Below are positions 16,276 to 62,800 of a stretch of 64,000 nt of DNA, one piece after another. The stretch covers positions 407,898,001-407,962,000 of the forward strand of contig OZ024740.1 of assembly GCA_964016885.1 (NCBI GenBank), given 5' to 3'. The stretch is from Eledone cirrhosa (Eukaryota). The translations under genes were made by a program, and so were the position numbers. Within the stretch, counting starts at the first letter, position 1. Each line of letters begins with the position of its first letter. The notes below the pieces were generated by a model. That model was given only the letters and a program-made list of their open reading frames with translations, searched no databases and was not told the origin of the DNA.

Positions 16276-16387
16276 CGCCAATATATATATATAATTAATG
16301 TCAACATTAGAAGAGGGATAGGCATTTTTATATATATATACATATATATATATATATAGTTATGTAATAAACAACATAAGATAATTA

Positions 16388-16782: not shown

Positions 16783-16807
16783 ATATATATATATATATAT
16801 GAAAAAG

Positions 16808-16885
16808 TGAGTCCTTCATCAGTGACCCTCCAACCGTCCTAGGCATTTCATCGCTTTAAGGGCCATATACCTTAGGTTGGTGCGA
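16808..16885 (-). ncRNA. Putative non-circularly permuted hammerhead ribozyme (family A, minus copy)
   Basis: Reverse complement of 17773-17850 with one substitution. Confidence 0.6.
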
Positions 16886-17772
16886 ACAACGGCTAAAAAA
16901 AGTCGTTGGGACACGTAAATAAAGAGAACGTTAGGGTGAACAAACAAAATGGTTTAAGCAACAGAAAGTGAGAAGAAAGAGACAAGTCCCAGATTTCTAT
17001 GAATATAAACTCGATAAAATCGTGAACGAGAGAATAAAGACCATCAAACCTGGTTGAAATGTGAGCAAGGAAGGAATTTCGCACAGGTCTAACGGGGGGA
17101 AGAAGAAGGGGTCTGGTCTGCGAATTCGGTAAACATAAGTTCTGTGAAGTCGCAAACGAGAGAGAATGGCCCTTAAAGCGATGAAATGCCTAGGACGGTT
17201 GGAGGGTCACTGATGAAGGACTCACTTTTTCATATGTAACCCATTTGCAACGCCGCAGCTCCATTATTATCATATTTACACATATATTTTTTCCTCTGCT
17301 GCCACCCGTCTGTTTCGTTCTTTGTATCTTTACCCTTTCTAGCAGTCTCTCTCTCTGTTAGCCTCTTCCTCAACTTTCACTCACTCATACCCTGTCACTA
17401 CCTCTCCTCCTCTCCTCTTTTTTCCCGCTTGACCTGTCCGATTTCTTTTCTCGCGCGCTCTTGGCCAAGCCGGTATGAATTTTTTTTCTCTCTCTCTCTC
17501 GTCTGCGACTTCACAGAACTTATGTTTACCGAATTCGCAGACCAGACCCCTTCTTCTTCCCCCCATTAGACCTGTGCCAAATTCCTTCCTTGCTCACATT
17601 TCAACCAGGTTTGATGGTCTTTATTCTCTCGTTCACGATTTTATCGAGTTTATATTCATAGAAATCTGGGACTTGTCTCTTTCTTCTCACTTTCTGTTGC
17701 TTAAACCATTTTGTTTGTTCACCCTAACGTTCTCTTTATTTACGTGTCCCAACGACTTTTTTTAGCCGTTGT

Positions 17773-17850
17773 TCGCACCAACCTAAGGTATATGGCCCTC
17801 AAAGCGATGAAATGCCTAGGACGGTTGGAGGGTCACTGATGAAGGACTCA
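17773..17850 (+). ncRNA. Putative non-circularly permuted hammerhead ribozyme (family A)
   Basis: AGGTA-TA-TGGCCCT ... GAAA-TGCCT ... AGGGTCA-CTGATGA; stems I and III pair, with core strands in reversed order. Confidence 0.65.
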
Positions 17851-17894
17851 CTTTTTCATATGTAACCCATTTGCAACGCCGCAGCTCCATTATT

Positions 17895-17930
<36 letters not shown>

Positions 17931-17934
<4 letters not shown>

Positions 17935-18048
17935 TTTTAATGCGATGAAATACCAATGATCGTTGGCAAATCACTGATGAGGGACTCATTTTATAACATG
18001 TAATCCATGTGCAACCATGCAGTATTCTTCTCCCCATATTTTTCACAT

Positions 18049-18080
<32 letters not shown>

Positions 18081-18440
18081 ATATATATATATACACATCT
18101 ATATATATATATATATACACATGTATATATATATATATATATACACATGTATATATATATATATATACACATGTATATATATATATATGTGAAAAATATG
18201 GGGAGAAGAATACTGCATGGTTGCACATGGATTACATGTTATAAAATGAGTCCCTCATCAGTGATTTGCCAACGATCATTGGTATTATTGGCATTTGCCA
18301 ACGATCATTGGCATTAAAAATCATATACCTCACGTTGGTGCGATAATAACTAAAATAAGTTATTAGGACAATTGAAACGCGTAAACCGAGTGAGACAAGT
18401 AAACAACACAGGGGAAAGCTAACCGAAGATAGTAAGAAAC
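17931..18440. mobile_element. Element B: diverged relative of A, two inverted copies around a (TA)n tract
   Basis: 17931-18045 (+) and ~18188-18345 (-) carry the same motif with compensatory changes; the minus copy has an internal duplication replacing the GAAA segment. Confidence 0.7.
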
Positions 18441-18555: not shown

Positions 18556-18602
<47 letters not shown>

Positions 18603-18604
<2 letters not shown>

Positions 18605-18750
18605 CCTTATGAAAATTAACGGCTGAGCAGCCTAATTTGCATATCGAGTGAGCTAAGTCGGTCAGGCATACCGAAAACGATAAGTTGAAATCAAATGAAA
18701 ACGAAATTTCATTTCTCACTCTTAGTACGGCACTTACTTAAATGTAAGTA
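18603..18750. repeat. Diverged fragment related to the 466-bp HHR unit
   Basis: TATGAAAATTA..GCAG.CTAATTTGCATA..GTGAG..ACGATAA..AACGAAATT aligns with ~48395-48490. Confidence 0.6.
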
Positions 18751-19116
18751 TGTGTGTATACGTACATACATATATGTATACAGATGTACAGTAGCATGCA
18801 TATATATATATATATACATATATATACATATATACATACAGGTACACATACAAGAATTACAACAAAAATTAAATAGAAAATATGAGTGGAACAGCAACAT
18901 CACAACTTACAATTAAGGAAAAACGAAAACACACACACACATAGAACAAACAACCAACCAGTAACATGTAAATAAACAAATAAATAAATGAACATAAACA
19001 CACACAGACACCCGGATGTGGCGCATGCGCAGACTGAGCACACAACACACACACAGAAACAAAATGGTGTAGGACAGAACAAAGGAGAGGCACAGAAACA
19101 AAGAAAGGAATCCCCA

Positions 19117-19159
19117 GTCACTGAAGAGGTCACAGAGTGTGTGACGAAAGAACTATGAC
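19117..19159 (+). ncRNA. Type I hammerhead ribozyme motif
   Basis: GTCA-CTGAAGA-g GTCAC..GTGAC-GAAA-GAAC-TA-TGAC; minimal stem III. Confidence 0.7.
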
Positions 19160-19297
19160 AATATATAAACAACTATCTGGTTGTGGAACCAACCAACCAA
19201 CCAGAAATTTATAAATTTATAAATTTATTATAATAAATTGAAGTGAAAGCATCTGGTGCGTGTGTTTCTTATTGGCAACATGACCCTCCCAAAGTAT

Positions 19298-19334
<37 letters not shown>

Positions 19335-23566: not shown

Positions 23567-23631
23567 CACATATGTATATATATAGATAAATATACACGGG
23601 TGTGTATGATTGTGTATAGAAGATTATATTA

Positions 23632-24008
23632 ATAAGAGGAATTCCAACTTTGTCTGATTTACTCGTTTTATTTACAATCCTTTAAAATTTATAATGGTAT
23701 TATAATGAAATAGTATGATAGAATATTAAATGCTAAGTGTTAATTGAACAAGTACTTTCATGCTTTCGCAATCTTCAGGTTCATAATGTGTGGTGACAGT
23801 CAAGTTTGTAATTTTCAACTGTTGAAAATTGCAAACTTGACTGTCACCACACATTATGAACCTGAAGATTGCGAAAGCATGAAAGTACTTGTTCAATTAA
23901 CACTTAACATTTAATATTCTATCATACTATTTCATTATAATACCATTATAAATTTTAAAGGATTGTAAATAAAACGAGTAAATCAGACAAAATTGGAATT
24001 CCTCTTAT
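23632..24008. repeat. Near-perfect 188-bp-arm palindrome carrying one HHR per arm
   Basis: Arms mirror around 23820 with a few mismatches; adjacent to (TA)n. Confidence 0.92.
23857..23895 (+). ncRNA. Type I hammerhead motif (mirror copy at 23745-23783, minus)
   Basis: TGAAC-CTGAAGA-t TGC gaaa GCA t-GAAA-GTAC-TT-GTTCA; palindromic stem III. Confidence 0.75.
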
Positions 24009-24144
24009 ATATATGCATATACATATGTATGTATATATATATGCATATATATATATGCATATATATATACATATATATATGCATATACATAAGATTATAT
24101 ATATATATGCATATACATATGTATATATATATATGCATATAAAT

Positions 24145-26815: not shown

Positions 26816-28740
26816 GACAAAATGTATGAGTATGTGTGTATGTATGTATGAATATGTATGTGTGTATGTATGTATGAATATGTATGTGTATGTGTATGTA
26901 TGAATATGTATCTATGTGTGTATGTATGAATATATATATATATATATATACATATATATTTACATCATCATCATCATTTTACGCCTGCTTTTCCCTGCAT
27001 ATATGTACATATAAATTTACATATATATATACATATCTATATGTATATTATATATATATATCTATGTATATTATATATATATATATATATCCATATATAT
27101 ATATATATATTTGCATATATATATATACATATCTATATGTATATATTATATATATATATTTGCATATATATATATACATATCTATATGTATATATTATAT
27201 ATATATATATTATATATATCTATCTATGGAAATTATATATATACTAGTAGAGGTATCCGGCGTTGCTCGGGTATTAAATAGCAGTTGTGTATACCATTTA
27301 TGTCAATACTTCAGTGCTGCTTCGAAAACTATACTTTTACAAAATCATCGGCTTTTTCCAAAAGGGCGTTCCTGCCCCAATGGGTCCCCTACTCAATGTG
27401 TGCCAATTCTGAGAGTTTACATTCATCTGTAGGACAAACGTAGCCCATGTGTCAATTTTTTATGAAAATCGGTTGCGAATTCCAGAAGTTATGACGTTCT
27501 GTTGCATTGCGCTGCAGTGCTTCAGTCGACTCCAAGGAAGTGGTTAAAGGGGGTTATCTGCCGGGAGGCCCTATAATCTATATCTGGCAAAAAGGAAAGT
27601 GCCCATGACCATCCGGAGTACATAAGTAACATATGTTTTAAGTTTGGTGAAAATACTGTAGAAATGCATAAGGTTTATACATACGCGCGCGTGCGTGTGT
27701 GTGTGGGGGGGGGGGTATGTATTTGTGTGTGCGTATGTATGTGTATGTCTGTCGGGGCATACGTAAGTACTGGCTTAAATCTTCACTATTTACTTTTACT
27801 ATTTTAATAACCTCTGTCATTTTCGTTTTCAATTTTATTTACATCATTCTTAAACTCCGGGGCTGGAAATCATTGTTATTTTAAATAGAATATTAGTCTA
27901 ACGACTCCATTTATACCATAAACTTGGTCTTGTCTTTGCATGAAATTGTTCTTCTCGTTCCACATAACGACGTATTATCTTCGCTTTTTTCCGTTCATTG
28001 CCAGGGAACGTCTTCACGATCCAAAGTATCGTCTTCCTGTTTTCCTTCGGTTGCAACGTTTCTCGAAATATTTACTTCTGCGTTCACAGATTTCTCTCAG
28101 TTCAATTTGAATGGGAAATTCCTGTTTCATCGATTTTCTCCGTAACCATGGAAGCTTTTAGCTTGAAAGTCGTCCCAACGCCTCCTTGGGTCATTCTGCA
28201 TAACTGTGTAAATTTTCGCTGCATTCCACCAAGCCGTTTCGACGTTTATCCGACTACACCTACATAAACGTTATTTCGCTGTTAATAAACAACTGCCTTC
28301 TACAGTACGTTTCATTTAACTTACGCAGCATATTTATTTGTTTACATGCACAGACTCTTCTGTACACACACAACATTTAGGAAAACGGAAACAAAATACA
28401 CAAAAAAAAACAAAACAAAAAAACAGACATTTTATTTCTATCGTAATCAAGTGCGATAAACCTATATTGTTTACATTCTGTGTTTTTTTACGGATGGGTA
28501 GAAATAACAAAATTGCCATGGTGATATCCATCGATGAAGTATGCGACAAAACTGGTCGATGTCCCAAAATAGAACATTTCCCGGAAGATCACACCTGACA
28601 TATCTGTAATTACGGAACCCGAAAACTCGTTCCGTAATCGTTGGGTCGAATGTGGAACCTGTCGCATCTCTGTCTGCCTTCAATGCGCCACAGGCTTCCG
28701 GAAGATCCCAGGCCAAAATAAGAAACATCATATTGCTACG

Positions 28741-29727
28741 ATGGATAGACTCTGGGAGATGGTCCAGCTAACAAACTGGTCCTTTCAGTGCCTGGACTGT
28801 ATGCCTGCTTCTCCCATTGCTGCGGAACAACAACAAAGACCGAAGATCGTGTCTTCTACCATTGTTCCTGAACAACAACAACAAAAACCGAGGATCGTGT
28901 CTTCCTCTACCATTGTCCCTGAACAAGAGCAAAAACCAACGACCGTAGCTTCTGCTACTACCCCCGTTGAAGGACTTCATCAACAACAGCAACCCATGTC
29001 TTCCTCACCCGTTACTTTTCAACAACAACAACCGACGACTGTGTCTTCTACCATGCCTGTTGAAGGAGAAGAACAAAAACAAAAACCGACCGTCAATACG
29101 GAGTTTGAGGAAATACGGCAAATGATTTCCGCTTTAAGTAAAAAAATAGCGGAAATAAAATCAAGCGTTCGTGTAGAACCCCACAATGAGGGATCTTACC
29201 GGAGTGCCTTGTTAAAAAATCGCCGCGTACCTCATGTCGAACCTAGACGCATTGAGAATGCCACTGAATCTACAAACCACGAAGTGATTGCCATTGGTGT
29301 GCCGGAAGACATAGTTGATCTTCAGGCATTTGCTGCCAGTTCATCCAAAGACCTGGGCTGTGCTCCCGCAAAGGGTGCTCTACGCCTTGGCCGACCAGGC
29401 CCGAAACCCAGGTTAATTAGACTGTCGTTTTCAAACTCAACTGAGGCACGTTCATACCTTGTAGCCTCTGATAAAGCTAGGCGTGAAAGTCGGATTGCTT
29501 TCCGAACACGTCCTGGTCTTCCACCTGATGTCCGCCCAAAGTTGCGTGCTGCAGCTTCCCTAAACCGCAGCTCGGCAGAACATGAAGGCTTCAGCCTACG
29601 AGATGATGGGCAGATATGGAAGTTTGTTAAGGCTGGCGAATCATGGAAAAGAGACACCAGCTGGTCTGAAAACACTGTACCCACAACAACTGACAATAAA
29701 GAAACTGAAAAAACTCTGGGAAACTAA
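28741..29727 (+). CDS. CR1 ORF1 (partial PHD-like Cys cluster, Q/P/T repeats, coiled coil, RRM-like part)
   Basis: Frame open from 28573 (WVECGTC..VCLQC...FQCLDC); IGVPE, LRLGRP...PRLIRLSF; ends LGN-stop. Confidence 0.75.
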   Translation: MDRLWEMVQLTNWSFQCLDCMPASPIAAEQQQRPKIVSSTIVPEQQQQKPRIVSSSTIVPEQEQKPTTVASATTPVEGLHQQQQPMSSSPVTFQQQQPTTVSSTMPVEGEEQKQKPTVNTEFEEIRQMISALSKKIAEIKSSVRVEPHNEGSYRSALLKNRRVPHVEPRRIENATESTNHEVIAIGVPEDIVDLQAFAASSSKDLGCAPAKGALRLGRPGPKPRLIRLSFSNSTEARSYLVASDKARRESRIAFRTRPGLPPDVRPKLRAAASLNRSSAEHEGFSLRDDGQIWKFVKAGESWKRDTSWSENTVPTTTDNKETEKTLGN

Positions 29728-29783
29728 ATCAGAACAACCTGCCATCCCCTGCACATAATCATAGACTGGAATCAAAGTACAAA

Positions 29784-32545
29784 TTGTTGTCCTTGAATGC
29801 ACGTAGTCTATGCAATAAGATTCATCTTTTTGACTCCTACGTCAAAAGTATCAACCCGGACTTCATTACAGTCACGGAAACTTGGGCACATCCCTTACTC
29901 TGTGATGGGGTTTTCAGCATGACTGGCTACAACCTGTTTCGTAAAGACCGTATTAATCGTCGTGGTGGTGGTGTAATGGTCTACGTTCGGTCAAATCTGT
30001 CGGCAATTCCTTGTGCTGATTTGAACCAATCACAGCAGGAAGTTTTTTTCTGCGATATACGTATGACCATGTCAACACTGCTACTTGGAGTCGTTTACCG
30101 TCCTCCAAATTACCATCAGGACACTCAACTTTGTGATATCCTCAGAGCTGCTGCCAGGAAGACAGCCACTTATGTTTTCATTGCAGGTGACTTCAATCAC
30201 CCTGAGATTGACTGGGAGACCTTTCGTTGGCCGCCAAGTGCAGATGACTTCCTTGAGCTGGTGCTGGACTCGAGTTGGTCCCAGGTGGTCACCTCCCCAA
30301 CGAGAGGTGACAACACTTTGGACCTACTCTTCACCACTACTCCTGAAACGGTCATTAGTGTTACTGCTGAGGAACCTTTAGGTGACTCTGATCATGCTAT
30401 GATCATTGCCAATCTATCCCTCATGGGCAGTAACAAGAACCACAATCATCTCCAAACTGCTCACTTTGACTGTAATAAAGCAGACTGGAACTGTTACTGC
30501 ACCGAGTTGCAACGGCCAAACTGGCTTGAGTTCTACGACTCTGGAGATGTCAACACTGTACTCCAGAACATCCTGAGCTCAATATGGACAGCATGTGCAG
30601 CATCGGTGCCACGTAAGCGGAAAAAACATCCCCAAAGCGCAATTTGGGAGACTGCAGCAGTCCGTCTTGCCAGAAAAGAACGGCGCAATGCTGAACGTGA
30701 ATACAAACTGCATAAATCAGACATTAATAGGGAGAGGCGAAATAGATCGTCCAACCACCTCAAACAGGTGACAAAAAAGGCAGTGCTTCAATTTGAGCAG
30801 CGCATAGCAACCAGCCCTGACAGTAAGGTGTTCTGGAAGTATGTTCACTCAAAGCAGAGGCCTCACTCTCCAGTTGGTCCTCTTCGCAATCCCCACACAA
30901 GCCAGGTTACTGACGACCCCAAGGAATGCGCAGAGCTCATTGCTGAATGCTATGCAGGCATTTTCACTATTGAAGACCAGAGTGTACCATCTCCACCACC
31001 TATGACACCGGACTCTATTACAACCATGGAATTTACACCTGCAATGCTGCGACGTCACCTAAAAAATAAACGCAACCATGCCTCTCCTGGTATTGATGGT
31101 GTTACGTACCTGCTTCTTAAACGTGGTGGGTACTTCCTTCTACACCAGTTATCACGCTTCTTCCAATTCTGTCTGAACAACAGTGCTACTCCAGAACAGT
31201 GGAAAACTGCCAGTGTCATTCCTCTGTTCAAAAAGGGTGACCGCACATCACCTGTGAACTATCGTCCAGTCAGTCTTATTAGTTGCATCGCCAAACTGAT
31301 GGAATCCTGTGTCAGAGAAACACTTTGGAACTTCTGGAGCTCTCACAGTCTTATCCGGCCCTCGCAATTTGGATTTATCCCCAACTCCAGCTGCTGTGAT
31401 CAACTTATAGAGTTTCTTGAGGACATCACCCGGATCACTGATGGCGGTTCATGGGTGGATGTTGTTTACCTTGACTTTGCGAAGGCCTTCAATTCTGTGC
31501 CGCACAAAAGGCTTATGGCAAAACTCTCTGCAATGAGTGTGAAGGATGATCTTTTTAACTGGTTGAAGTCCTTCATTCTCAGTCGAGGAGAGGTAGTCAC
31601 GGTTCTGGGACAGCATTCCTCACCATATGAGATGTCATCTGGTGTACCTCAGGGATCTGTTCTTGGCCCCCTTTTGTTTGTGGCATATATTAATGACATA
31701 GATGCCAACTTAAGGAATGCCACAGTACTAAAGTACGCAGACGACATCAAGCTGTACCTTGAGATAAAAAGGACAGATCCTGAACACTATAGATCTTGCT
31801 TGCAGTCTGACCTGGACACAATGCAACAGTGGATCTCAGACTGGCAACTCAAGCTAGCTGTGAACAAATCACCACCATGCATTTTGGGAGTAAAAACCCA
31901 GCGTCCACATACTCCCTCCACAGCACTAATATCAAGAAGTCTTCCTGTGAACGTGACCTGGGCATTACGGTCAGCAGCGATTTGCGTTGGACGAGGCACG
32001 TCTCTAAAATTGTCAAGAGGGCCGATGATGTCTTAGCATCACTCAGCAAGACCTTTGTCGGCCGCTCTCCAGATATCTATTTAAGGCTGTATACAGCTAT
32101 GGTGCGACCACACTTAGAATTTGCATCACCAGTCTGGAACCCCTATCTTGCTCAGGACATTGACCGCCTGGAAACTGTTCAGAGACGTGCAACCAAGCGA
32201 ATACCCTCCATCAGGCATCTACCATACTCTGAGCGCCTTGCTTCCCTGGGCATGGATTCATTGAAGCTCCGACGCCTGGCAACTGACTTGGTAAACACCC
32301 ATAAAATTGTTAACCATGTTGCCAACAACAACCCTGAGTACCTTTTCGATTTCCATGTGTCTAACACACGTGGGCATGCCCACAAAGTAAGAAAACAGCA
32401 CAGTTCCCATGACTTTCGGAAACATTTTTTCACGCTCAGAGTTGCTGAAGCATGGAACAAACTACCTGCATCAGTTGTTAGCTGTCGAGACACTGCATCC
32501 TTTAAGGCCTCCATGCTTCCCGAGATCCGCCAACAGAACAGCTAA
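29784..32545 (+). pseudogene. CR1 ORF2 (APE + RT) with one frameshift near 31869
   Basis: LNARSL, VTETW, AGDFNHP, SDH; YLDFAKAF, GVPQGSVLGP, YADD; continues in another frame MHFG...VRPHLEFASPVWNP...WNKLP. Confidence 0.92.
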
Positions 32546-33783: not shown

Positions 33784-33873
33784 ATATATATATATATATA
33801 TATTAGAAAGTGAGTTTTTTTTTACAAAATGAAAAATAACCGAGGTATCCTACACGAGTGAAAGTATAAAGAT

Positions 33874-34150
33874 AAAAAGATGAAATCGAAAATGCAACTG
33901 GAGTCTTATTTTTAAAAAAATATATATATTTATTTGGTTCCTTTACCGGTTTCGCAGTTCTTCTGCTTTTCAAAAGTAGAGTTGAGATGGAGGGTCTGTG
34001 GTTTTTCTCACATCTGAGAAAAACCACAGACCCTCCATCTCAACTCTACTTTTGAAAAGCAGAAGAACTGCGAAACCGGTAAAGGAACCAAATAAATATA
34101 TATATTTTTAAAAAAATAAGACTCCAGTTGCATTTTCGATTTCATCTTTT
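33874..34150. repeat. ~137-bp-arm palindrome carrying a variant HHR per arm
   Basis: Arms mirror around CATC at 34011-34014. Confidence 0.9.
34049..34084 (+). ncRNA. Variant minimal hammerhead (UUGAAAA core); mirror at 33941-33976 minus
   Basis: CTT-TTGAAAA-GCAG aagaa CTGC-GAAA-CCGG-TA-AAG; U3-A8 replaces C3-G8. Confidence 0.65.
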
Positions 34151-34154
34151 TTTC

Positions 34155-34185
<31 letters not shown>

Positions 34186-34368
34186 AATTGTTTCTACTTT
34201 TGGCACAAGGCCAGCAATTATCCCAGTGCATTACTGGTACTTTATTTTATCGACCCCGTAAGGATGAAAGGCAAAGTTAACCTCGGCGGGATTTCAACTG
34301 AGAATGGCAAGGGCCGTAACTCTATGCGTCAAAGCATGGTGTCCGATCCTCTACCGATACTGCCAATC
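34186..34368 (-). mobile_element. MetaSINE-like SINE copy
   Basis: Same family as 9476-9668. Confidence 0.85.
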
Positions 34369-42003: not shown

Positions 42004-42202
42004 CAAACTTTATTTCCTACATCTTCTGTAGTATTTCAATCCAAACTTTATTTCCTACATCTTCTGTAGTATTTCAATCCAAACTTTATTTCCTACATCT
42101 TCTGTAGTATTTCAATCCAAACTTTATTTCCTACATCTTCTGTAGTATTTCAATCCAAACTTTATTTCCTACATCTTCTGTAGTATTTCAATCCAAACTT
42201 TA
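42004..42202 (+). repeat. 38-bp minisatellite, 5 full copies plus a partial
   Basis: CAAACTTTATTTCCTACATCTTCTGTAGTATTTCAATC. Confidence 0.95.
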
Positions 42203-42329: not shown

Positions 42330-42720
42330 CTTTGACTGGGCAATACACCGCAGCTGCGCCACGCAGAGAACAGCTAGCAACACCCGCATATCACCCTTTT
42401 CACTCCAAGGGAGTTGTACCCAACTCGATTTTGTGAAGGAAAACAGCAGTTCGAATACAAAGGACACCCCGTACTGCCGAGCTCCTCCGCAAGATCAGAG
42501 GGTCGGCGGCTCGTCTGAGGAGGGAGCCCCGCAAGGTTGGGTGGCTGTTGCAGCGGGTGTCACTGGCCATCGCCGGGGGAATGCTTTTGACGTCTTGTCA
42601 GCGGGGCGCAGCACTTCTGCCCCTTTGCCCTAGGTCCAAAGCCCAATTACCCTCCCCCTTCACCCCACCCTCTCTTCTGCGACACCAGAGCTCTTGCCAT
42701 CCCCTCACCTTCCCATCCTT
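42330..42720. mobile_element. CRE-like non-LTR 3' fragments
   Basis: TAELLRKI..RREP..GWLLQRVSLAIA..GNA on plus (42471-42720); a related fragment inverted at 42330-42470. Confidence 0.6.
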
Positions 42721-43172
42721 TTTCTTCTTTCTTTATTCCTCTTTTTTTCTATATTTCCCTATTCTTTCTTGTCTTTTCCCCTTTTTTTTATTTCTTCTTA
42801 TTTTTAAAGACATTCACATAAAAATAAAAACAAAACTAATAGCCTGCTGGCATTTGGTGCAAAAAAAAAAAGAAGAAAAACCAGAATCAAAGCCCGTAAG
42901 TTGCCGGTCTTCCGCTCCAATGCATTATAGATTGCGCTGCCAGGTTTGTGGCCGAGTCGACGACATTGGAACAGGAAAACCTGTCGCAGTATGTGGCTTC
43001 CCATATTAGTAAATGTTCCACCTTAAACAGGAATGGGGCTATCCCGTTTAACACCTACCGTCCCCACGATCGAGACTAATCGGCTCTAATTGTAAAGGGG
43101 AAACCAGCCATGTCAAGGCTCCTTCTGGGGTAATTTGGACTGGTCACAGCTTCTATCTTATTTCTCATTCTT

Positions 43173-43208
43173 TTTTCTGATGAAGGACTAGCGTCCGAAA
43201 CGTTAAGA
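43173..43208 (+). ncRNA. Minimal hammerhead motif in a probable Penelope-like 3' end (~43010-43300)
   Basis: TTTT-CTGATGA-a GGAC tagc GTCC-GAAA-CG-TT-AAGA; upstream LNRNG resembles the end of a PLE ORF. Confidence 0.7.
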
Positions 43209-45665: not shown

Positions 45666-46757
45666 TTGAGCCTCACCAAGGTTTTTTTCATTCTCCAAAC
45701 TTATCTGTCAATCCTTAAGTTGTATTTCCTCAGAGTTGGTCCCTCTTACAGATTCTCGTCGTCTCTCCAACGCTTCGACTATTTAATCTTCAGTGAGCTC
45801 GACGGCCTGGTCAATGTCCGACTCTCTCCAGAGTCCCACGACCAAGCTGCCTTACCCAAACGGTTTGGAGGTCTCGGATGTGTAAGTGTACTTCATTGAC
45901 CCTTCCATGTTTGCTTCTCTTTGGTGGGTGACATCTTCTCCTTCCCAACATGGACTAGTTCCATCAGGGAGATGGATGAAGCTTTACTACAGTGGAGAAA
46001 GCTGGGGTTGTCAGTTCTCAATACTAATGAGGATAGACGGAAGTAGAGAGTATGGGACAATCTGCGTCCGAGGGAAACTTCCAACTCTCTTTGATCTTTC
46101 CGATCAATTTTCTAGGTGCCGTTTACTTTCTGCTAGCGCAAAGTTCTCGGTGGACTGGATTGGTACCCTGCCTGTGACCAACATTGGTGGCCTTCTCAGT
46201 CAGGATGAATTCCGCACCTCCATTGCAGTCCGTGTGGGAGCCTCGGTCTGTGATAGGTCCCTCGACTCCGCAGGTTTACATGGTTTGTCCTGCCGCCTGA
46301 ATGCTGGTCGTTTTGCCCGTTACACCGAGCTGAACCTGATCATCAAACGGGCCCTGGCTCGGATTAATATCCCCACAGTTCTGGAGCCGGCTGGTTTAAC
46401 CACATGTGATGGGAAGAGACCAGACGGTCTTACCCTTTGTCCCTGGGTGATAGGTAGGTGTCTCATCTGGGACGTCACGGTCAATGACTCTTTCCCCCCT
46501 CCCACATCATGGATGCCACGGTGAATGTGGGAGTCACTGCTTCCGCTGCCGAACGGAATAAAATTCGGAAATACCAGGACTTATCAAACAATTATTTTTT
46601 GCAACCTGTGTTCGAGACGTCCGGTGGAGTCGGGCCGCTGACAGCAAAGTTCTTGTCTTTACTGGCGGTGTCAAGTGATGCCCGTGAGGGTGCCTGGTTA
46701 TTTCAGCGTCTTAGCCTCGTCACCATCCGTGGTAATGCCGCGAGCGTGTTGGCTTGA
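45666..46757 (+). pseudogene. CRE-like non-LTR retrotransposon C-terminus (CCHC + restriction-like endonuclease), frameshifted
   Basis: QAALPKRFGGLG, GLHGLSC, LEPAGL..DGKRPDG, LIWDVT, AERNKIRKY, FQRLSLVTIRGNA. Confidence 0.85.
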
Positions 46758-47189: not shown

Positions 47190-47615
47190 CCTCATCTGGG
47201 ACGCCACCTGCTGCGACACGTTCTCCGCCTCCAACTTAGTCGTTTCGTCCACAAACCCCGGCATCGCAGCCCATCTCGCAGAAGAACGTAAAATAAACAA
47301 ATACCGGGGTTTGTCCGGCCGCTTCCTCTTCACACTGGTCGCCGTCGAGGCCTCAGGCGTACTGCCGAGCTCCTTGGCAAGATCGGAGCGTCGCTGGCCC
47401 GTCTGAGAAGCGAACCCCGTGAGGTTGGGTGGCTGTTGCAGCGGATGTCACTGGCCATCGTCCGGTCGAACGCTGTTGCCGTCTTGTCTGCGGGGCGCAG
47501 CACTTCTGCCCTCTTGCCCTAGGCCCAAAACCCAATCACTCTCCCCTCTCTTCTGCAACATCAGAGCTCTTGCTATCCCCTGCCCTTCTCGTCCTTTATC
47601 TTCTTTCTTTCCTTT
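47190..47615 (+). mobile_element. CRE-like 3' fragment
   Basis: LIWDATCCDTF...AEERKINKY...VAVEASG; continues as in 42471-42720. Confidence 0.75.
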
Positions 47616-47944
47616 TGTTTCCCATTTTTAAAATAAACATCTATATTTTAGAATTGTACTTCACGATGTGTATCAAGTAAACTAATAGTCTATTAGTGAA
47701 ATTTCGATTTTCTTAAAATCGACATTTGATTTTAAAACGAGTAATTTTTCGTTTTTCAGACAGATATTTCCGGTAATTTTCGTAAGTGTAAATAACAATA
47801 TTATTGGCAACTAGACCACCAGTGACCCGTTGGGTCACGTTCATTTCAAAATATTTTTTTAAAAATCATGTTCACTTAAAAATAATTTTTAAATAATCAA
47901 AATATACACAGACATGTATATAATGTGAAATGGAACCGGAAGGC

Positions 47945-47994
<50 letters not shown>

Positions 47995-48001
<7 letters not shown>

Positions 48002-51000
48002 CAAATAACGAAACGAAATTAAATTTCGTTTCGTTTGTAACTCACTTTTGTATGACTGACGCTTAAACAATTAAGTTAAAAATGTACATCTACATATGCA
48101 TACTGAAATATTAGTATGCATATGAATACACACACGTATACATATGTAGATGTACCAAGTCTTTCACTGGTTACTTTACTGTGAGTATCCAGCTATTCTG
48201 TATGTAAACACACAGACAAACCGGTTTTTAGAGTCATACTGGTTTTTGAGGAAACACCTTTCCTCTATTCTCCAGAAAGCCAGACAAGGAATATTGAACT
48301 AGTTTCGTTGTTGTTACAACTCATCAGCAATATTTACCTATCTACCGGCCTTTCTGGAGAATCGTAAAAGCACATATCGTTATATGCTTTTTCTATGAAA
48401 ATTAGTAGTGGGCAGACTAATTTGCATAGAGTGTGAGTACGTACCGGTTCAACGGAGACGATAAAAACAAATAACGAAACGAAATTAAATTTCGTTTCGT
48501 TTGTAACTCACTTTTGTATGACTGACGCTTAAACAATTAAGTTAAAAATGTACATCTACATATGCATACTGAAATATTAGTATGCATATGAATACACACA
48601 CGTATACATATGTAGATGTACCAAGTCTTTCACTGGTTACTTTACTGTGAGTATCCAGCTATTCTGTATGTAAACACACAGACAAACCGGTTTTTAGAGT
48701 CATACTGGTTTTTGAGGAAACACCTTTCCTCTATTCTCCAGAAAGCCAGACAAGGAATATTGAACTAGTTTCGTTGTTGTTACAACTCATCAGCAATATT
48801 TACCTATCTACCGGCCTTTCTGGAGAATCGTAAAAGCACATATCGTTATATGCTTTTTCTATGAAAATTAGTAGTGGGCAGACTAATTTGCATAGAGTGT
48901 GAGTACGTACCGGTTCAACGGAGACGATAAAAACAAATAACGAAACGAAATTAAATTTCGTTTCGTTTGTAACTCACTTTTGTATGACTGACGCTTAAAC
49001 AATTAAGTTAAAAAAAACAATTAAGTTAAAAATGTACATTTACATATGCATACTGAAATATTAGTATGCATATGAATACACACACGTATACATATGTAGA
49101 TGTACCAAGTCTTTCACTGGTTACTTTACTGTGAGTATCCAGCTATTCTGTATGTAAACACACAGACAAACCGGTTTTTAGAGTCATACTGGTTTTTGAG
49201 GAAACACCTTTCCTCTATTCTCCAGAAAGCCAGACAAGGAATATTGAACTAGTTTCGTTGTTGTTACAACTCATCAGCAATATTTACCTATCTACCGGCC
49301 TTTCTGGAGAATCGTAAAAGCACATATCGTTATATGCTTTTTCTATGAAAATTAGTAGTGGGCAGACTAATTTGCATAGAGTGTGAGTACGTACCGGTTC
49401 AACGGAGACGATAAAAACAAATAACGAAACGAAATTAAATTTCGTTTCGTTTGTAACTCACTTTTGTATGACTGACGCTTAAACAATTAAGTTAAAAAAA
49501 ACAATTAAGTTAAAAATGTACATCTACATATGCATACTGAAATATTAGTATGCATATGAATACACACACGTATACATATGTAGATGTACCAAGTCTTTCA
49601 CTGGTTACTTTACTGTGAGTATCCAGCTATTCTGTATGTAAACACACAGACAAACCGGTTTTTAGAGTCATACTGGTTTTTGAGGAAACACCTTTCCTCT
49701 ATTCTCCAGAAAGCCAGACAAGGAATATTGAACTAGTTTCGTTGTTGTTACAACTCATCAGCAATATTTACCTATCTACCGGCCTTTCTGGAGAATCGTA
49801 AAAGCACATATCGTTATATGCTTTTTCTATGAAAATTAGTAGTGGGCAGACTAATTTGCATAGAGTGTGAGTACGTACCGGTTCAACGGAGACGATAAAA
49901 ACAAATAACGAAACGAAATTAAATTTCGTTTCGTTTGTAACTCACTTTTGTATGACTGACGCTTAAACAATTAAGTTAAAAATGTACATCTACATATGCA
50001 TACTGAAATATTAGTATGCATATGAATACACACACGTATACATATGTAGATGTACCAAGTCTTTCACTGGTTACTTTACTGTGAGTATCCAGCTATTCTG
50101 TATGTAAACACACAGACAAACCGGTTTTTAGAGTCATACTGGTTTTTGAGGAAACACCTTTCCTCTATTCTCCAGAAAGGCCGGTAGATAGGTAAATATT
50201 GCTGATGAGTTGTAACAACAACGAAACTAGTTCAATATTCCTTGTCTGGCTTTCTGGAGAATAGAGGAAAGGTGTTTCCTCAAAAACCAGTATGACTCTA
50301 AAAACCGGTTTGTCTGTGTGTTTACATACAGAATAGCTGGATACTCACAGTAAAGTAACCAGTGAAAGACTTGGTACATCTACATATGTATACGTGTGTG
50401 TATTCATATGCATACTAATATTTCAGTATGCATATGTAGATGTACATTTTTAACTTAATTGTTTAAGCGTCAGTCATACAAAAGTGAGTTACAAACGAAA
50501 CGAAATTTAATTTCGTTTCGTTATTTGTTTTTATCGTCTCCGTTGAACCGGTACGTACTCACACTCTATGCAAATTAGTCTGCCCACTACTAATTTTCAT
50601 AGAAAAAGCATATAACGATATGTGCTTTTACGATTCTCCAGAAAGGCCGGTAGATAGGTAAATATTGCTGATGAGTTGTAACAACAACGAAACTAGTTCA
50701 ATATTCCTTGTCTGGCTTTCTGGAGAATAGAGGAAAGGTGTTTCCTCAAAAACCAGTATGACTCTAAAAACCGGTTTGTCTGTGTGTTTACATACAGAAT
50801 AGCTGGATACTCACAGTAAAGTAACCAGTGAAAGACTTGGTACATCTACATATGTATACGTGTGTGTATTCATATGCATACTAATATTTCAGTATGCATA
50901 TGTAGATGTACATTTTTAACTTAATTGTTTAAGCGTCAGTCATACAAAAGTGAGTTACAAACGAAACGAAATTTAATTTCGTTTCGTTATTTGTTTTTAT

Positions 51001-51392
51001 CGTCTCCGTTGAACCGGTACGTACTCACACTCTATGCAAATTAGTCTGCCCACTACTAATTTTCATAGAAAAAGCATATAACGATATGTGCTTTTACGAT
51101 TCTCCAGAAAGGCCGGTAGATAGGTAAATATTGCTGATGAGTTGTAACAACAACGAAACTAGTTCAATATTCCTTGTCTGGCTTTCTGGAGAATAGAGGA
51201 AAGGTGTTTCCTCAAAAACCAGTATGACTCTAAAAACCGGTTTGTCTGTGTGTTTACATACAGAATAGCTGGATACTCACAGTAAAGTAACCAGTGAAAG
51301 ACTTGGTACATCTACATATGTATACGTGTGTGTATTCATATGCATACTAATATTTCAGTATGCATATGTAGATGTACATTTTTAACTTAATT

Positions 51393-51396
<4 letters not shown>
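47995..51396. mobile_element. Inverted tandem array of 466/484-bp HHR-bearing units inside (TA)n (retrozyme/Penelope-like)
   Basis: Unit starts at 47995, 48461, 48927, 49411, 49895; inversion at ~50167-50179; ~2.6 reverse units to 51396. Confidence 0.92.
50195..50239 (+). ncRNA. Type I hammerhead (also 50661-50705, 51127-51171 plus; 48290-48334, 48756-48800, 49240-49284, 49724-49768 minus)
   Basis: AATATTG-CTGATGA-GTTG taacaa CAAC-GAAA-CTAG-TT-CAATATT; palindromic ACTAGT stem III; extended stem I. Confidence 0.85.
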
Positions 51397-51455
<59 letters not shown>

Positions 51456-52998: not shown

Positions 52999-53390
52999 GT
53001 ATATGTGCGTGTGTAAATAGCAACAATAAATAAAATCATTAGTGTTAAAGACAAAGTTTTTATGTATAAAATGATGAACAATCAATAGGTGTCTATTGTA
53101 TTTTTTTACAATTTCTAATAGGCCAGACCAACATATCAACTATTTTTATCATTTCTTTGAACTAAGGCTGTAAAACAAAGACATTTGTCATCAATATTTC
53201 TTTTTTCACAATGAAAGTTTTTCCAGCCGGAACTTATTCATCTCCTCAATGTATTTTGTCTCTAGCTTCTCTGTATCTGTTTAAATATTCTTAGCTAATC
53301 AATCAATTCCACTATGTATTGAAATTTTGTATTGTATTTCTAAAGAAATACAATATGTTTTCAAATCCAGCAGTTGCAAGAGTGGGAGGG

Positions 53391-53434
53391 ATCGTCCTGA
53401 TGAGAACCAGTTAAGTTCGAAATGCATTGATGAT
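53391..53434 (+). ncRNA. Type I hammerhead motif
   Basis: ATCGTC-CTGATGA-GAAC cagttaa GTTC-GAAA-TGCA-TT-GATGAT. Confidence 0.75.
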
Positions 53435-54347
53435 TGTCCCCCTTGCTTCTGCTGGACACCACCAGAAGGCGATAGCCCCGGTGTTTTGCATAGTACGGCT
53501 TTCTAAATGATTAGCCATAAACATACCATAGGAAGATGGACGTTAAACGATGATGATGATGATTTCTTTAGAAATACGAAATTTCAATAAACATTATCTC
53601 ATTTTTACTTTTTTTTTTTGCAGTATCGGTAGAGCATTGGATACCCTTTTTGGCAGCATAGAGTTACGGCCCTTTACGGTTCGAGTTCAAATCCTGCCTA
53701 GGATAGCTTTGCCTTTCATCCATATGAGGTTGATAAAACAAAGCACCAGTAATGCACTGGGGTCGATTTAATCAACTTTTCCATCCCCCAAAATTGCTGA
53801 CCTTGTAGGAATCATTATTTTGAAAATAATAACTATAATCAGGCGATGGATTACTCGTATCTGTAGAGCATCAGACAAAATGTTTTGTGGCATTTAATTA
53901 TGAATTTCTATGTTCTGAATATAAATCCTATCATGGTCATCTAATAAAAGTATCAGTCAATTACTAGAGTTGATTTAATCACTTTGCCTTTCTCCAAAAT
54001 CTGCTGGCTTTTTGCCTAATATGTATATATGTTGGGCAGTGGTTTAACAGTGTGGAAGACATGCCAACCTCTAAAAACTCAAACGGGCAGTACCAAAAAA
54101 AAAAGAAAAAGGCAAAATGGGGCGATTCTACATAATGAAAGCTATACCTATTTTCACAAGAGAAGACATCTCTCACCCAACCCAAAGTGGCTGGAGATCT
54201 CCCCGTCGGACGGGGAGGGTTGTATGGGTAGAGTGTTGAACAAATGCTTGTTTTTCTTTTTGTGTATTCATTTGAATTTACTGCATATAACGTATAATGG
54301 CATTTTTTAGACTATATTTTCTGTTTTGTGAAGAGGGGGCATATTAA

Positions 54348-55063: not shown

Positions 55064-55277
55064 GGGCGGTGGATTGGCAGTAGAGGGGGTGGATTGGCAG
55101 TATTGGTAGAGTGTCGGACACCATGCTTTGCAGCAAAGAGTTACGGCCCTTTATGGTCTGAGTTCAAATCCTGCCGAGGTTAACTTTGCCTTTCATCCTT
55201 ACGGGGTCGATAAAATAAAGTACCAGTAATGCACTGGGATAATTGCTGGCCTTGTGCCTAAAGTAGAAACAATTATT
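55064..55277 (+). mobile_element. MetaSINE-like SINE with duplicated 5' end
   Basis: Full head to tail; further copies at 53620-53770, 56240-56420, 56445-56633, 60400-60590 (+) and 62208-62390 (-). Confidence 0.85.
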
Positions 55278-55386
55278 AAAAAGTAAAACAAGATAGATTT
55301 AAAGTAAATAATAAATTGGAGAACCAATATGAAGGGTTGACATCACAGAGTCTTTATGGAAGGTGGCGAGGAGTTCTTTAGTTTAA

Positions 55387-58562: not shown

Positions 58563-59347
58563 ATACAGCAATGTTGCATGGCAGTGAGACCTGGGCATTG
58601 TGTGCAGAGGATATACGCAGACTAGAGAGGAACGAAGCTTGCATGCTCCGCTGGATGTGTAATAGTAATATACGTGAACGGCAAAGCATAAACAAACTAA
58701 GGAAAAAATTAGAAATAAGAGGGATCAGATGTTGTTTACTCGAGAGAAGGCTACGTTGGTATGGTCACGTGATGCGCATGAAAGACGACAGCTGTATAAC
58801 AAAGTGCAGGACAATAAAGATAGACGGTAGCCATGGAGTAGGCAGACCCAGGAAAATCTGGGATGAGCTGATAAATTCCGACCTCACACACTTACACCTC
58901 TCCAAGACAATGTCACTGGACCGAGACCTTTGGCGGTACTCAGTAACAGAGAAGACCCGCCTTGCCTAAATACAAAGTAAAAGCTACTAATCAGTAAGCA
59001 TCTCTAACAAAATACACCCCCGTCCCACCCCATCCACACCGCCCCCTTCAATGCAAAGTTATGTTGGTGCCACAACATCCAGGCCGAAACAAATGAGATC
59101 GTGTAGGTGCCACGACAAAAAACACACAGTCCACGCTGTAATGTGGCCGTGTAGGCAACACGGTAAAAACCTCCCAGCCCCACACTGTAAATGTGGTTGG
59201 TGTTAGGAAGGGCATCCAGCTGTAGAAAACCCGTCAGACAGTCCTATGCGAGCAAGACAACCACTCTTGCCTCAAGTGGGAAAACCCCCGTCCAAACCCA
59301 TGCAAGCGTGGAACAGGGACGTTAAACGATGATGATGATGATGATGA
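58563..59347 (+). mobile_element. RTE LINE 3' fragment (family A)
   Basis: TAMLHGSETW...TEKTRLA, 3' UTR, (GAT)n tail. Confidence 0.93.
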
Positions 59348-59569
59348 TTGCGAGCCAAGCAAACTTCTGCAGAGCTGAGTCTACAACACAGTTTTGGCTC
59401 TTTGAATAAAGAATAAATGTTACTGTTTACTTCTCCTATGGGAAACACACACTATATACTTTTTATTCTTTGTTTTGTATAATTAAACTATATAGAGGTA
59501 AGAAGGCTGATTAAAATATGTATTCAACTACCTGTATAAGATCATGGGTTCAAAATTGTTGCAGGTATT

Positions 59570-59880
59570 CCGTTGCTTTTCTGGGCCAAAATACTGGCAT
59601 GCAGCAACTTGCTCTCTGTCCCCAGCCTTGTTGTTTTGGCCACAAGATGGAGGAGAGGAAGATATCGAGGCCTGACCAACCACTTCCTCTTTGTATTGAT
59701 CTCTGTCAAGACCTCTGGTGTCCTTGGTCCCTGCACTGCTGAATTCCTCTGTAAAGTTAGAAATACAGTGACCCACCTGAGGAGGGAGCCCTGTGAGTTG
59801 GGGTGGATGTTGCAGTGGGTGTCTGGCTATTTTGTCCATGGGACACAGCTGAGGCACCATTCAAACTGGGGTGTAATGCC
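59570..59880 (+). pseudogene. Degenerate CRE-like 3' fragment
   Basis: SVKTSGVLGPCTAEFLCKV...RREPCELGWMLQ. Confidence 0.55.
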
Positions 59881-62800
59881 TGTCCCCCCCCCCTTTCTCT
59901 TTTTACTTGATCCTTCTTTCTTTTTCTTTTTTATTTCTTTTTCTTCCTTTTCTGTTCCCTTTAAAAACAAGATATACAGAGAAAAATCAATGAACAAATC
60001 TTTGATTTACTGTTTTGATTTGATAGCTGATCATTAGAATGTATTACCTGCAAAGAATAAGCTACTAAAGGAGCTTCTATGTGGTTGCTTGCTCTGCTAG
60101 AAATAACCAAATTTCCCTCAAATTATACTCTACCATTTTCAACAAAATAAAAACACATATAAGAAAAATGGTGTTCAGTACATAATGGTTAGAAAAAGAA
60201 ATGTTACAACTAGAATGCCTTTCAGCATATCTGTTCAACTGTGGTTGATTTTGGGTGAAACAACAACCAACAAAGTATTATACCTATCCAGAGGAAATTT
60301 CTCAACTTAATGGGCCCTAAATTGAGTTAAAGATCTGGCCTTTAAAAGCTCCCCATAGCATAGAAAGTATTTACATTACATTATTAGGTTATAGTAAACA
60401 GTGGATTGGCAGTATTGGTAGAGAGTCAGACGCCATGCTTTGCAGCATAGAGTTACGTCCCTTTTCGGTCTGAGTTCAAGTCCCGCCGAGGTTAACTTTG
60501 CCTTTCATCCTTACGAGGTCGATAAAATAAAGTACCAGTAATGCACTGGGATAATTGCTGGCTTTGTGCCAAAAGTAGAAACAATTATTAGATTATAGTA
60601 AAGTGTTTCAAATAAATAGGTTGAAGTATGTAGACAACATTGTATTTGTGTTAATATGTGTAGAGTTGGCTGTATGGTTAAGATTTTGTAACCATGTGAT
60701 TCTAGATTTGGTGCCACTGTGTACTACCTTGGACGGGTCTTCTATAACAAATACTTTACTATTGGAATTTGGGAGAGAGAAAGCTATTTGAAAGCCTATC
60801 ATATACTGTATATATTCATATATAAGTTGTACTTTTTGTCACAAAAATACGATCTGAAAAACCAACATGTGACTTATCTACTGCACCTACAAAACTTTAA
60901 TTTGAAATATACGGTACACTGTAAACATATGTAAAATGGATGTTAAGAACTTACTTGGTCTGTAACAACTCGTCCAATGAGAGACATGGCGAGCAGATAT
61001 AAAATGATGATATATGCAGTTTTTGGAATAAGTACAGTGGCATCTAACTATAAAACACTGCCTCTAAACATCCCATCCCACTCATGCCAGTATGGAAATG
61101 GATGTAAAAATGATGATAGTATGTATACACACGTGTATCTTTTCTAAAAAAAACTGTTCTATTAACAAATTGTGATAAAAAAATAAGTTAAAAAAATCAA
61201 ATATCCCTAAAGTTAGGCTGAACAATACAGTTTTCCTTTGCTTTCAAGAATGAGACAATGATATATATTAATTCTGATACTAGTTCCTGGACCCCTAAAT
61301 CCTTTCCCCACTAACTTCAATCAGGAAAAATTTAGCTGACTGCAAGAATGAGTGGAGATGCTCTTTCAGTACATCTCTCACTATCCTCCTGGGTAACATA
61401 TTTATAATTTTGCCCAACGCAAAACCATGAAAGGTTTGCATGACGAGCTGTGATTTCCTTTGGCTATTAAGAAGACATTTATGTGATGGTGTAAACATAG
61501 TTGAAAGCAAAAAGTCTTTGACAATTAATTTCTCAGCGATATTGAAGCTGGTGTTTTTAATTTTTGAGTGGAGGCATATATTCAGCTATTAAACAAAGTA
61601 ATACGCCTGATTTTATTTATTTTGGGAACCAATCTCTGAAAAAACCATGTAAATCAACCGTGAGTCGTTCATTGTTTTATGTGAAAGTGAAATAAATGTT
61701 TAACTTGCGTAGTGGACATCAAAATGATCTGTTACAAAAATTATATAAGTATAGCAATGTATATATTTCTGTTTTTCTTTCAACAAACAGTGAAGCTTTA
61801 AATTAATATTACTAAATTATATGTAATAACAACTAAACAAGTAGGTGTCTTTGATCATTCAATGAAACAGCCAACAATGGATATCATAGAACCATTCATG
61901 AACTTCAACAAGTGAGAGCTGAAGATATTGATTGGATAATCTTAATATAGATTTGTGTGTGATATCTAGAAATATAGATATTCTATAATCAACAAGTCTC
62001 TCACAACCTGATTAAACACATTGGTGGTTATATGACTGACAACAAAGGTATGTATCGCTCATGAGAATTAGATTTATAGAATTAATAATGTTGATACTTT
62101 TTTTTTTAATTATATCTCAGGAGAGAAGCAATAACTTATTACAGTGACAGTACAATGCTAGGGGGTAGAGGCTGAAATAATGATGATGTTGATGGTAAGA
62201 AAGATAATAATTGTTTCTACTTTAGGCACAAGGCCAGCAATTACCCAGTGCATTACTGGTACTTTAGTTTATCGACCCCCCGTAAGGATGAAAGGCAAAG
62301 TCAACCTCGGCGGGATTTGAACTCAGATCGTAAAGGGACGTAACTATGCTGGAAAGCATGGCGTCCAACCCTCTACCGATACTGCCAATAATAGTGAGTA
62401 TGTTCATGATCCTAATGAATAACCATTAACTTTATTCTGGCAGACTTTAGAAACATTCAAGTTCAAAATGTTTTTATGTTTAAGTGTTGTAAATATGTCG
62501 GTCCTGTGTCATTCTATTTGAAGAACACTCCTTTATCTCGTGATATTTTCAATATTCAATAGTATGTTTACTGATATCAGTAAAATATTGATACTAACTG
62601 AATGATCAATGAATATTTTATCTCATGGTAAGAGAGATGCGACTGATTGCACGTTTATATCGGAATTTTTTTTCTGATTGTTTTGCTGGTTATTTTAAAG
62701 AGATGGCAACAGAGTCAATAGTTATTCTAGATCCTCCTGAACACATGGATAAAAATATCTTGGTTGTTGATATTCAATTTGAATTACTGCATGAGGATGG

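Follow-up and report, generated by a model that had tools for sequence, protein, structure and literature searches.

A Head-to-Head Array of 466-bp Hammerhead Units with Features of a Non-LTR Retrozyme Probably Inserted by Penelope-Type Priming

Overview

A head-to-head array of non-coding, 466-bp hammerhead units was found between two (TA)n runs in the window, the whole 64-kb stretch of DNA that was analysed. The array is a further example of the known animal retrozyme class and not a new system. We consider it probable that a retrozyme-type element was inserted here by double priming of the kind used by Penelope-type elements (PLEs), whatever the template was. With respect to the template, we lean, at slightly better than even confidence, toward the recent insertion of a non-LTR retrozyme array by a PLE enzyme acting in trans on a multimeric transcript, with both (TA)n strands primed. 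The most informative features are the outward-facing 3′ ends, the 66–68-nt tail, and the 13-bp stem I junction between the arms.

The published support for PLEs as movers of animal retrozymes, as far as the available text of the cited sources goes, consists of co-occurrence, shared ribozymes, and pLTR similarity. The array adds a mechanical footprint that matches PLE biochemistry, namely both-strand priming, two internal start sites, and a (TA)n target. This footprint is unusually clear and gives exact positions at which the partner and the template (a circle versus an uncut multimer) can be tested.

Architecture of the Array

The array contained 4.61 units in one orientation followed by 2.64 inverted units, in agreement with the roughly 4.6 and 2.6 opposed units of the original prediction. 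In the left arm (47997..50179), the ribozyme strand is the minus strand and its 3′ end points toward the left (TA)n run, while in the right arm (50167..51397) it is the plus strand and its 3′ end points toward the right run. Left-arm units 1 and 2 (47997-48462 and 48463-48928; 466 bp each, minus strand) were mutually identical. Units 3 and 4 (48929-49412 and 49413-49896) were 484 bp each and had in common an 18-bp tandem duplication, located at 48997..49032 in unit 3 and at 49481..49516 in unit 4; the remaining 283-bp partial unit (49897-50179) was exact. All three pieces of the right arm were also exact, comprising unit positions 1-366 (50167-50532), one full unit (50533-50998), and unit positions 68-466 (50999-51397).

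The duplication covers unit positions 69-86, and its start coincides with where the right arm begins. It was present in two adjacent units and absent from the other five passes over that site. The only other departure from identity was a single substitution in unit 3 (unit position 94, window position 49040), and the right arm carried neither the duplication nor the substitution. The near-identity that had been claimed for the units was thus reproduced, exceptions included, and the claim of a young insertion is supported in the sense of a young retro-insertion.

Perfect (TA)n runs were located at 47947..47997 and 51396..51451, as had been claimed for both flanks, and presumably represent the target site. 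They mask any target-site duplication. The left and right flanks are not mirror images of each other, and in the assembly the array is integrated chromosomal DNA. GC content of the unit was 0.35. The longest ATG-started frame was 50 aa, consistent with the claim that the array lacks an ORF of at least 60 aa, and the longest stop-to-stop frame in the array was 60 aa. The array has no LTR-internal-LTR layout, and the unit lacks Pol III A and B boxes.

Hammerhead Motifs and Predicted Folding

Seven CUGAUGA...GAAA cores were identified in the array, four on the minus strand (48327, 48793, 49277, and 49761) and three on the plus strand (50202, 50668, and 51134). The corresponding type I hammerheads on the minus strand occupy 48290..48334, 48756..48800, 49240..49284, and 49724..49768; the latter three are identical to the first, for which cleavage is predicted after 48297 at the triplet GUU. 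Those on the plus strand lie at 50195..50239, 50661..50705 (predicted cut after 50698), and 51127..51171. In each motif, stem I (7 bp) is extended beyond a bulge as a long helix, stem II comprises 5 bp with an AACA loop and G10.1-C11.1, and helix III is formed by the palindrome ACUAGU. The predicted total of seven held, but their placement at one per full unit did so only in part: five lie in the five full units, two sit in the right-arm partial units, and the left partial unit has none. Assignment to the retrozyme class, which calls for a minimum of two successive units that each contain a complete type I hammerhead, was upheld by the four on the minus strand and the three on the plus strand.

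A strict filter for the core together with stems I and II gave eight matches in the window (the seven of the array and one at 53397) and none in each of 20 shuffled windows. No Rfam family reached its gathering score within the window. Hammerhead_HH9 (RF02275) matched with 38.6 bits (E 2.8e-8), which is below its gathering score of 52, in an alignment that covered the full model length with no non-standard pairs marked. Rfam matches to miRNA and snoRNA families in the window were set aside, being far below gathering and reflecting AT-rich hairpins. The opposite strand of the unit contained no exact hammerhead core, only one word with one mismatch inside a stem I arm, and gave no Rfam ribozyme match with an E value of 10 or below.

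Folding of the unit was also investigated. The circular monomer had a predicted minimum free energy (MFE) of −156.9 kcal/mol compared with −91.9 ± 5.0 kcal/mol for 60 dinucleotide shuffles (z −13), which bears out the strong self-complementarity that had been described; the opposite strand gave z −9.7 in the same test. From cut to cut, the monomer is predicted to form a branched structure. For the 45-nt motif of a single monomer, the energy model gave a pair probability of 1e-5 for A15.1-U16.1 and +0.8 kcal/mol for the active fold. The MFE of this motif was −6.8 kcal/mol, below the −5 criterion, yet that fold is the inactive one, a prediction that counts against the mechanism favoured below. 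The active fold made from two strands had −15.2 kcal/mol versus −13.6 kcal/mol for two monomer MFEs, which is only modestly better. These predicted energies lean toward dimeric cleavage favoured by the palindromic stem III, as proposed earlier, and the hammerhead is predicted to cleave mainly as a dimer, which would release 466-nt monomers and circles. The predicted preference agrees with the available text of PMC4209133, in which metazoan motifs of type I whose helix III is short and palindromic are described as acting in dimeric form. Among Xenopus retrozyme dimers, only one of nine cleaved in vitro, according to the portion of 10.64898/2026.07.22.740005 that is available.

Ends of the Array and the Arm Junction

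Both outer ends of the array are 3′ ends of the ribozyme strand and face outward into (TA)n, and they lie 66–68 nt apart in unit coordinates. The 66–68 nt by which the left end exceeds the mirror of the right end constitute a tail (47997..48063, minus strand) that includes a 13-bp AAACGAAACGAAAT hairpin. At the other side of the arms, the ribozyme strands adjoin 5′-to-5′ over a 13-bp overlap (50167..50179), which corresponds to the complementary stem I extension arms at unit positions 271-283 and 354-366. Outward-facing 3′ ends would be expected if each target strand primed one inward-running cDNA, and the overlap of complementary stem I arms would allow a pair of cDNA 3′ ends to anneal at this point. 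Neither arm can be a fold-back copy of the other, as the duplications of the left arm are absent from the right, which is also the shorter of the two.

Other Elements in the Window

Three further inverted, tailed, and (TA)n-flanked elements were found in the window, at 16794-17864, 23626-24014, and 33865-34160, with arms that are 97-99% alike. One end is longer in each (by about 33-40, 41, and 61 nt), and the element at 23626-24014 contains minimal hammerheads with the same outward polarity as the array. A fourth, short palindrome (16416-16542) departs from the tailed pattern, both of its ends being ~57 nt from (TA)n. The window as a whole resembles animal DNA, being rich in (TA)n runs and containing LINE ORFs.

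Outside the array, a diverged relative of ~260 bp of the unit was identified on the minus strand at 18601..18860. Its score is 153; no other segment of the window exceeded 96, and no shuffle exceeded 86. It ends at (TA)n near unit position 390.

The presence of a potential mobilising element was assessed by a motif scan of the window, in which no PLE RT or GIY-YIG motif was found, so the suggested search for an autonomous PLE that shares the unit came up empty within these 64 kb. Pfam analysis of seven window ORFs identified two AP-endonuclease/RT LINEs, with no match for the other five and no GIY-YIG domain. The array itself was rejected as an autonomous PLE, having no PLE RT or GIY-YIG ORF in it and no such motifs in the window.

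Copies of the Unit in Public Sequencing Runs

The unit stretch or a part of it was present in 20 of 24 listed runs (16 studies and 17 organism codes), nine of which contained half the words or more. No RNA run was listed among them, which has no bearing on expression. Four of the 24 runs were compared with one unit (48186-48651) without flanks. Run X1, which may be the source sample of the window, contained 1,068 records, which together covered each of the 30 unit bins, at a summed depth of about 2e5 to 7e5 that is not a copy number. Six loose ends were seen in X1 among the matches listed, with 34 further rows over all runs. Of these six, also among the matches listed, (TA)n-flanked ends occurred at 48461 (12 contigs), 48530 (5 contigs), and 48535 (3 contigs), and the remaining three had 1-2 contigs each. 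Positions 48461 and 48530 are the array's own two outer ends in unit coordinates and were the best supported among the matches listed. Among the 16 variable places listed, the majority letter of X1 (65-95% of depth) was not that of the window in 4, and loose-end agreement was only ~0.73, so further loci probably lie behind the X1 ends.

Head-to-tail unit joins were present in X1 and X4. A strand-changing joint was not listed in any of the four runs compared, and the inverted junction is therefore documented by this assembly only. For X1, neither the 18-nt insertion nor the joint was listed, in contigs that drop rare variants.

When the 16 variable places were compared with the predicted fold, seven were unpaired, seven kept a pair, and two broke a pair; 5.0 pair-breaking variants were expected (P 0.036, a weak signal from sites that are not independent). 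The CUGAUGA and GAAA core contained none of the 16, although this number of sites is too small for significance. At position 17, both U and C occurred. An excess of A-to-G changes was also noted among the variants, for which allelic variation and ADAR editing would look alike.

Traces of the unit were found in two runs labelled as other organisms. In X4 (labelled organism B), a single 496-nt contig closed on itself with a period of 466, at a depth of 4.5 and with no flank, and X5 (labelled organism C) contained 11 unit records at a depth of about 10-30. All letter differences listed for X4 and X5 occur in X1 too. Given the low depth and the lack of convincing flanks, these traces are most likely carry-over from a repeat-rich sample. 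Such low-depth, mostly flankless contigs also do not support the alternative that a genomic family entered organisms B and C by horizontal transfer. Run X22 (raw Hi-C, organism E) had no unit reads in 1,938 million letters, which is no test of absence. Pattern scans gave no matches in metagenome contigs and, for the shared hairpin, none in viral contigs; three viral loci matched the core pattern only and had no BLAST similarity to the unit.

Proposed Insertion Mechanism and Alternative Explanations

The ends, tail, and junction were compared with what has been described for PLEs. PLE traits described in the available text of PMC8557442 are (TA)n targets, inverted copies with 5′ truncation, and a tail that measures 30-40 bp and is confined to one end. 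In the available text of PMC11167929, purified Poseidon protein cuts and extends both strands, prefers AT-rich DNA, and initiates within the RNA at two sites, which set the limits of the tail, and ribozyme cleavage is dispensable for PLE insertion in vitro. Retrozymes, in turn, co-occur with PLEs and resemble PLE pLTRs (10.64898/2026.07.22.740005, available text). The array bears this insertion signature in the form of inverted arms, a (TA)n target, and a two-end tail, the last of the same kind but longer. Two outward 3′ ends, a 66–68-nt tail, and a 13-bp stem I overlap point to a PLE-type mobiliser, as do the recurrence of both ends in X1 and the three other inverted elements of the window. 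Against the PLE reading, the tail exceeds the 30-40 bp described for PLEs, the relative at 18601-18860 ends at neither of the proposed start sites, and the motif scan of the window found no partner.

According to the multimer-templated insertion that we favour, a donor array would have been transcribed into multimeric RNA, which would be bound by a PLE RT/GIY-YIG protein, with RT starting at unit position about 1 or about 69. Both strands of the (TA)n target would be nicked and each would prime one cDNA, one 4.6 and the other 2.6 units long, after which the cDNA 3′ ends would anneal through the 13 complementary bases and be filled in. The 466-nt monomers or circles expected from the predicted dimer cleavage need not have been the template here.

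Alternatively, the same PLE-type priming on both target strands may have used a 466-nt circular monomer, with each RT rolling round the circle, a possibility that we regard as real but rather unlikely. The near-identity of the units and the absence of a seam at the predicted cut site would suit it, as would the very stable predicted circle fold, the abundant circles in coral, mussel, and axolotl retrozymes (available text of PMC7229834), and internal initiation, which would permit a PLE RT to work on a circle (PMC11167929, available text). The 18-bp duplication bears on both templates. Its first position is precisely the second start site, as expected of a slip during re-priming, and this keeps re-priming on a circle in play; however, with a circle the same slip would have to occur both in lap 3 and in lap 4 but in no other of the seven passes. 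At such a rate, slips should be widespread in the family, and X1 listed none. In vitro, moreover, PLE insertion proceeds without the cleavage that yields circles (PMC11167929, same text). That only two units, neighbours in one arm, carry the duplication is more readily explained by a multimer of unlike units or by expansion after insertion, and a single rolling circle fits this pattern less well than multimeric RNA.

Later expansion would mean that a shorter insertion was enlarged by unequal exchange or gene conversion, with or without a DNA inversion at the 13-bp inverted repeat. The duplication common to two adjacent units is what such growth could produce, and unequal crossover is an accepted model of local satellite amplification (10.64898/2026.07.22.740005, available text). 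We nevertheless consider this improbable. A DNA inversion needs two matching breakpoints and only one junction is present, the right end of the array is a recurrent 3′ end in X1, and the near-identity of the units leaves little time; the tail and the other inverted elements of the window would also be left unexplained.

Placement of the junction within a hairpin, together with its absence from all four runs compared, could indicate that the inversion is a library or assembly artefact, either a chimera folded back at the stem I hairpin or two loci wrongly joined. This is very unlikely, as a fold-back of the left arm would bring the duplications along or need a non-existent unit, the longer left arm means that neither arm was copied from the other, the flanks are not mirror images, and three other elements in the window have the same layout.

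That the unit is a viroid-like RNA moving between animal species and only occasionally reverse-transcribed into a genome, as its presence in the runs labelled organisms B and C might suggest, is scarcely credible, given that the opposite strand has no ribozyme core, that the X4 and X5 letter differences all recur in X1, that low depth without convincing flanks fits carry-over such as index hopping, and that a self-closing contig is also expected from any tandem DNA. In its strongest form, a free circular 466-nt RNA passing between unrelated animals without a DNA copy and written in from both strands by a rolling Penelope-type RT, it would make the unit a cross-species circular RNA and an animal viroid-like retro-element, which we find just as implausible. 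The label "viroid-like" given to the units originally is accordingly not retained, the array being chromosomal DNA with no core on the opposite strand.

Relation to Known Elements

Hammerhead viroids and viroid-like RNAs are characterised by RNA-to-RNA replication and ribozymes on both strands and are not known to have a DNA form. The array resembles hammerhead viroids and viroid-like satellite RNAs in size, self-pairing, the hammerhead itself, and the predicted dependence of cleavage on dimers. In contrast to hammerhead viroids, it has a ribozyme on one strand only, is chromosomal DNA with insertion flanks, and has a branched predicted fold. A comparison can also be made with L1 twin priming, in which two target nicks prime two cDNAs that are joined 5′-to-5′ by microhomology. 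Unlike its products, the array has no poly(A) and no L1 partner, and it has multimeric arms and internal start sites.

Chlamys elements such as MRC1 of Chlamydomonas are, like the array, non-coding and inserted head-to-tail in multiple copies, and they depend on PLEs (PMC8557442, available text). They differ in belonging to a green alga and to a clade without canonical hammerheads, and in having a known similarity to an autonomous 3′ end (same text). Closer in layout are the EN+ PLEs (Naiad and Anolis Poseidon PAc), which share with the array a type I hammerhead, an inverted 5′-truncated copy, 3′ ends that recur at two positions, a tail on one side, and targets that are AT-rich or (TA)n (PMC8557442, PMC11167929, and PMC4209133, each in its available text). 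Compared with them, the array lacks an RT or GIY-YIG ORF and has a tail of 66–68 nt versus 30-40 bp. Whereas Naiads have no canonical hammerheads in these texts, the hammerhead of the array combines a long stem I with a complete stem II of 5 bp.

The array conforms to the working definition of a non-LTR retrozyme, with tandem hammerhead units that are short and non-coding, GC below 50%, and a self-paired monomer (10.64898/2026.07.22.740005, available text). Tandem units, low GC, and self-pairing are shared with the metazoan non-LTR retrozymes described for coral, mussel, and axolotl in the available sources, which likewise consist of tandem non-coding units with one type I hammerhead each and have GC below 50%, a self-paired predicted circle, and mostly no more than seven units (at most seven in 75% of retrozyme families; 10.64898/2026.07.22.740005, available text). 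A weak palindromic helix III is likewise described for axolotl HHR_Amex1. Further criteria for the class are the absence of PBS and PPT motifs, self-cleavage in vitro, expression as linear and circular monomers, and, where a target-site duplication is present, a length of >4 bp for it. Circles are established for other retrozyme families, and PLEs have been proposed as mobilisers (PMC7229834, available text); the repeats are described as showing no motif that reveals a mobilising partner (PMC7761336, available text). The main texts of PMC7229834 and 10.64898/2026.07.22.740005 mention neither arms in head-to-head arrangement nor a tail or (TA)n targets, as far as these are available and with supplements that may differ. 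Our literature search, whose scope took in few of the subscription papers, found no report of inverted or tailed retrozyme arrays. Relative to the metazoan retrozymes in these sources, the array represents a new sequence family, and its unit of 466 bp lies above the 150-450 bp of PMC7229834 and inside the 51-972 bp of 10.64898/2026.07.22.740005 (available text of both). The array also differs from metazoan retrozymes in its cut triplet, GUU, for which X1 shows GUC as a minority form.

Inverted Elements and Hammerhead Motifs

The near-perfect palindrome at 23626-24014, which lies between (TA)n runs, was made up of 383-bp arms that were 97.7% alike, and its left end was longer by about 41 nt. 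Each arm carried one minimal type I hammerhead (cores at +23862 and -23778) with outward polarity. Judging by its sequence, this palindrome looks like the end of a Penelope-like element inserted head-to-head. An inverted-arm element at 16794-17897, also between (TA)n runs, had arms of 365 bp (98.9% alike) and a right tail (the extra nucleotides by which one outer end exceeds the other) of 33-40 nt; at 17166-17238, part of the element was repeated in tandem. This element contained a CTGATGA word preceded by GAAA, for which a standard hammerhead fold was not obtained when judged by eye. The palindrome at 33865-34160, with (TA)n on either side, had arms of 282 bp that were 97.2% alike and about 61 extra nt at its left end; no hammerhead core was found in it.

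A stretch with (TA)n at both ends was identified at 18601-19301. Its left 260 bp were a diverged relative of the 466-bp hammerhead unit, with the hairpins in identical order, and its right part contained a different hammerhead-like motif on the plus strand at 19121, with a stem II of 6 bp. Two copies of a short element were found face to face at 17949-18286, separated by a (TA)n/(CA)n run, and the motif CACTGATGA was common to this short element and the element at 16794.

Lone hammerhead-like motifs were also present on the plus strand. The motif at 53390-53435 (core at 53397) had a long stem I and a palindromic helix III, ATGCAT, and passed the strict filter, which combined the hammerhead core with a stem I/II requirement. 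A second motif, at 43177-43205, was limited to a minimal core in which no stem I was clearly recognizable.

Hammerhead-Like Cores in Viral Contigs and the Unit in Other Sequencing Runs

Hammerhead-like cores were detected in the viral contigs L001 (871-900), L002 (1501-1533) and L003 (1501-1533), each with a stem II hairpin and with the ACTAGT word that occurs in the 466-bp unit. Beyond this motif, the three contigs showed no relation to the unit. The unit or part of it was recorded in runs of 16 organism codes (B-Q) other than A, the label of run X1 and possibly that of the source sample; these comprised X4 (organism B) and X5 (organism C), both with the unit at trace depth, and 15 further rows. 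The presence of the unit in these runs may reflect real sharing, a co-sampled animal or carry-over.

Retroelement Sequences and Short Repeats

An uninterrupted LINE frame of 1,030 aa at 5139-8231, which we take to be RTE-like, encoded an AP endonuclease and RT, with a PHD finger within the C-terminal part (Pfam); related fragments lay at 1-640, 14397-16280 and 58565-59348. The two-ORF LINE at 28573-32545, presumably CR1/L2-like, contained an ORF1-like frame of 384 aa and an endonuclease/RT frame of 775 aa, broken near 32036. Retroelement C-terminus fragments with a restriction-like endonuclease pattern, assumed here to be CRE-like, were located at 42470-42756, 45886-46524, 47358-47629 and 59540-60037, and had no match in Pfam. 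One copy of this retroelement fragment forms the left flank of the hammerhead array.

A SINE-like repeat of roughly 190 bp was present in the window in more than 10 copies on both strands, 80-94% alike (for example, 9472-9661, 34184-34368, 55089-55278 and 60401-60590). A perfect minisatellite at 42004-42202 had a 38-bp period and 5.2 copies.
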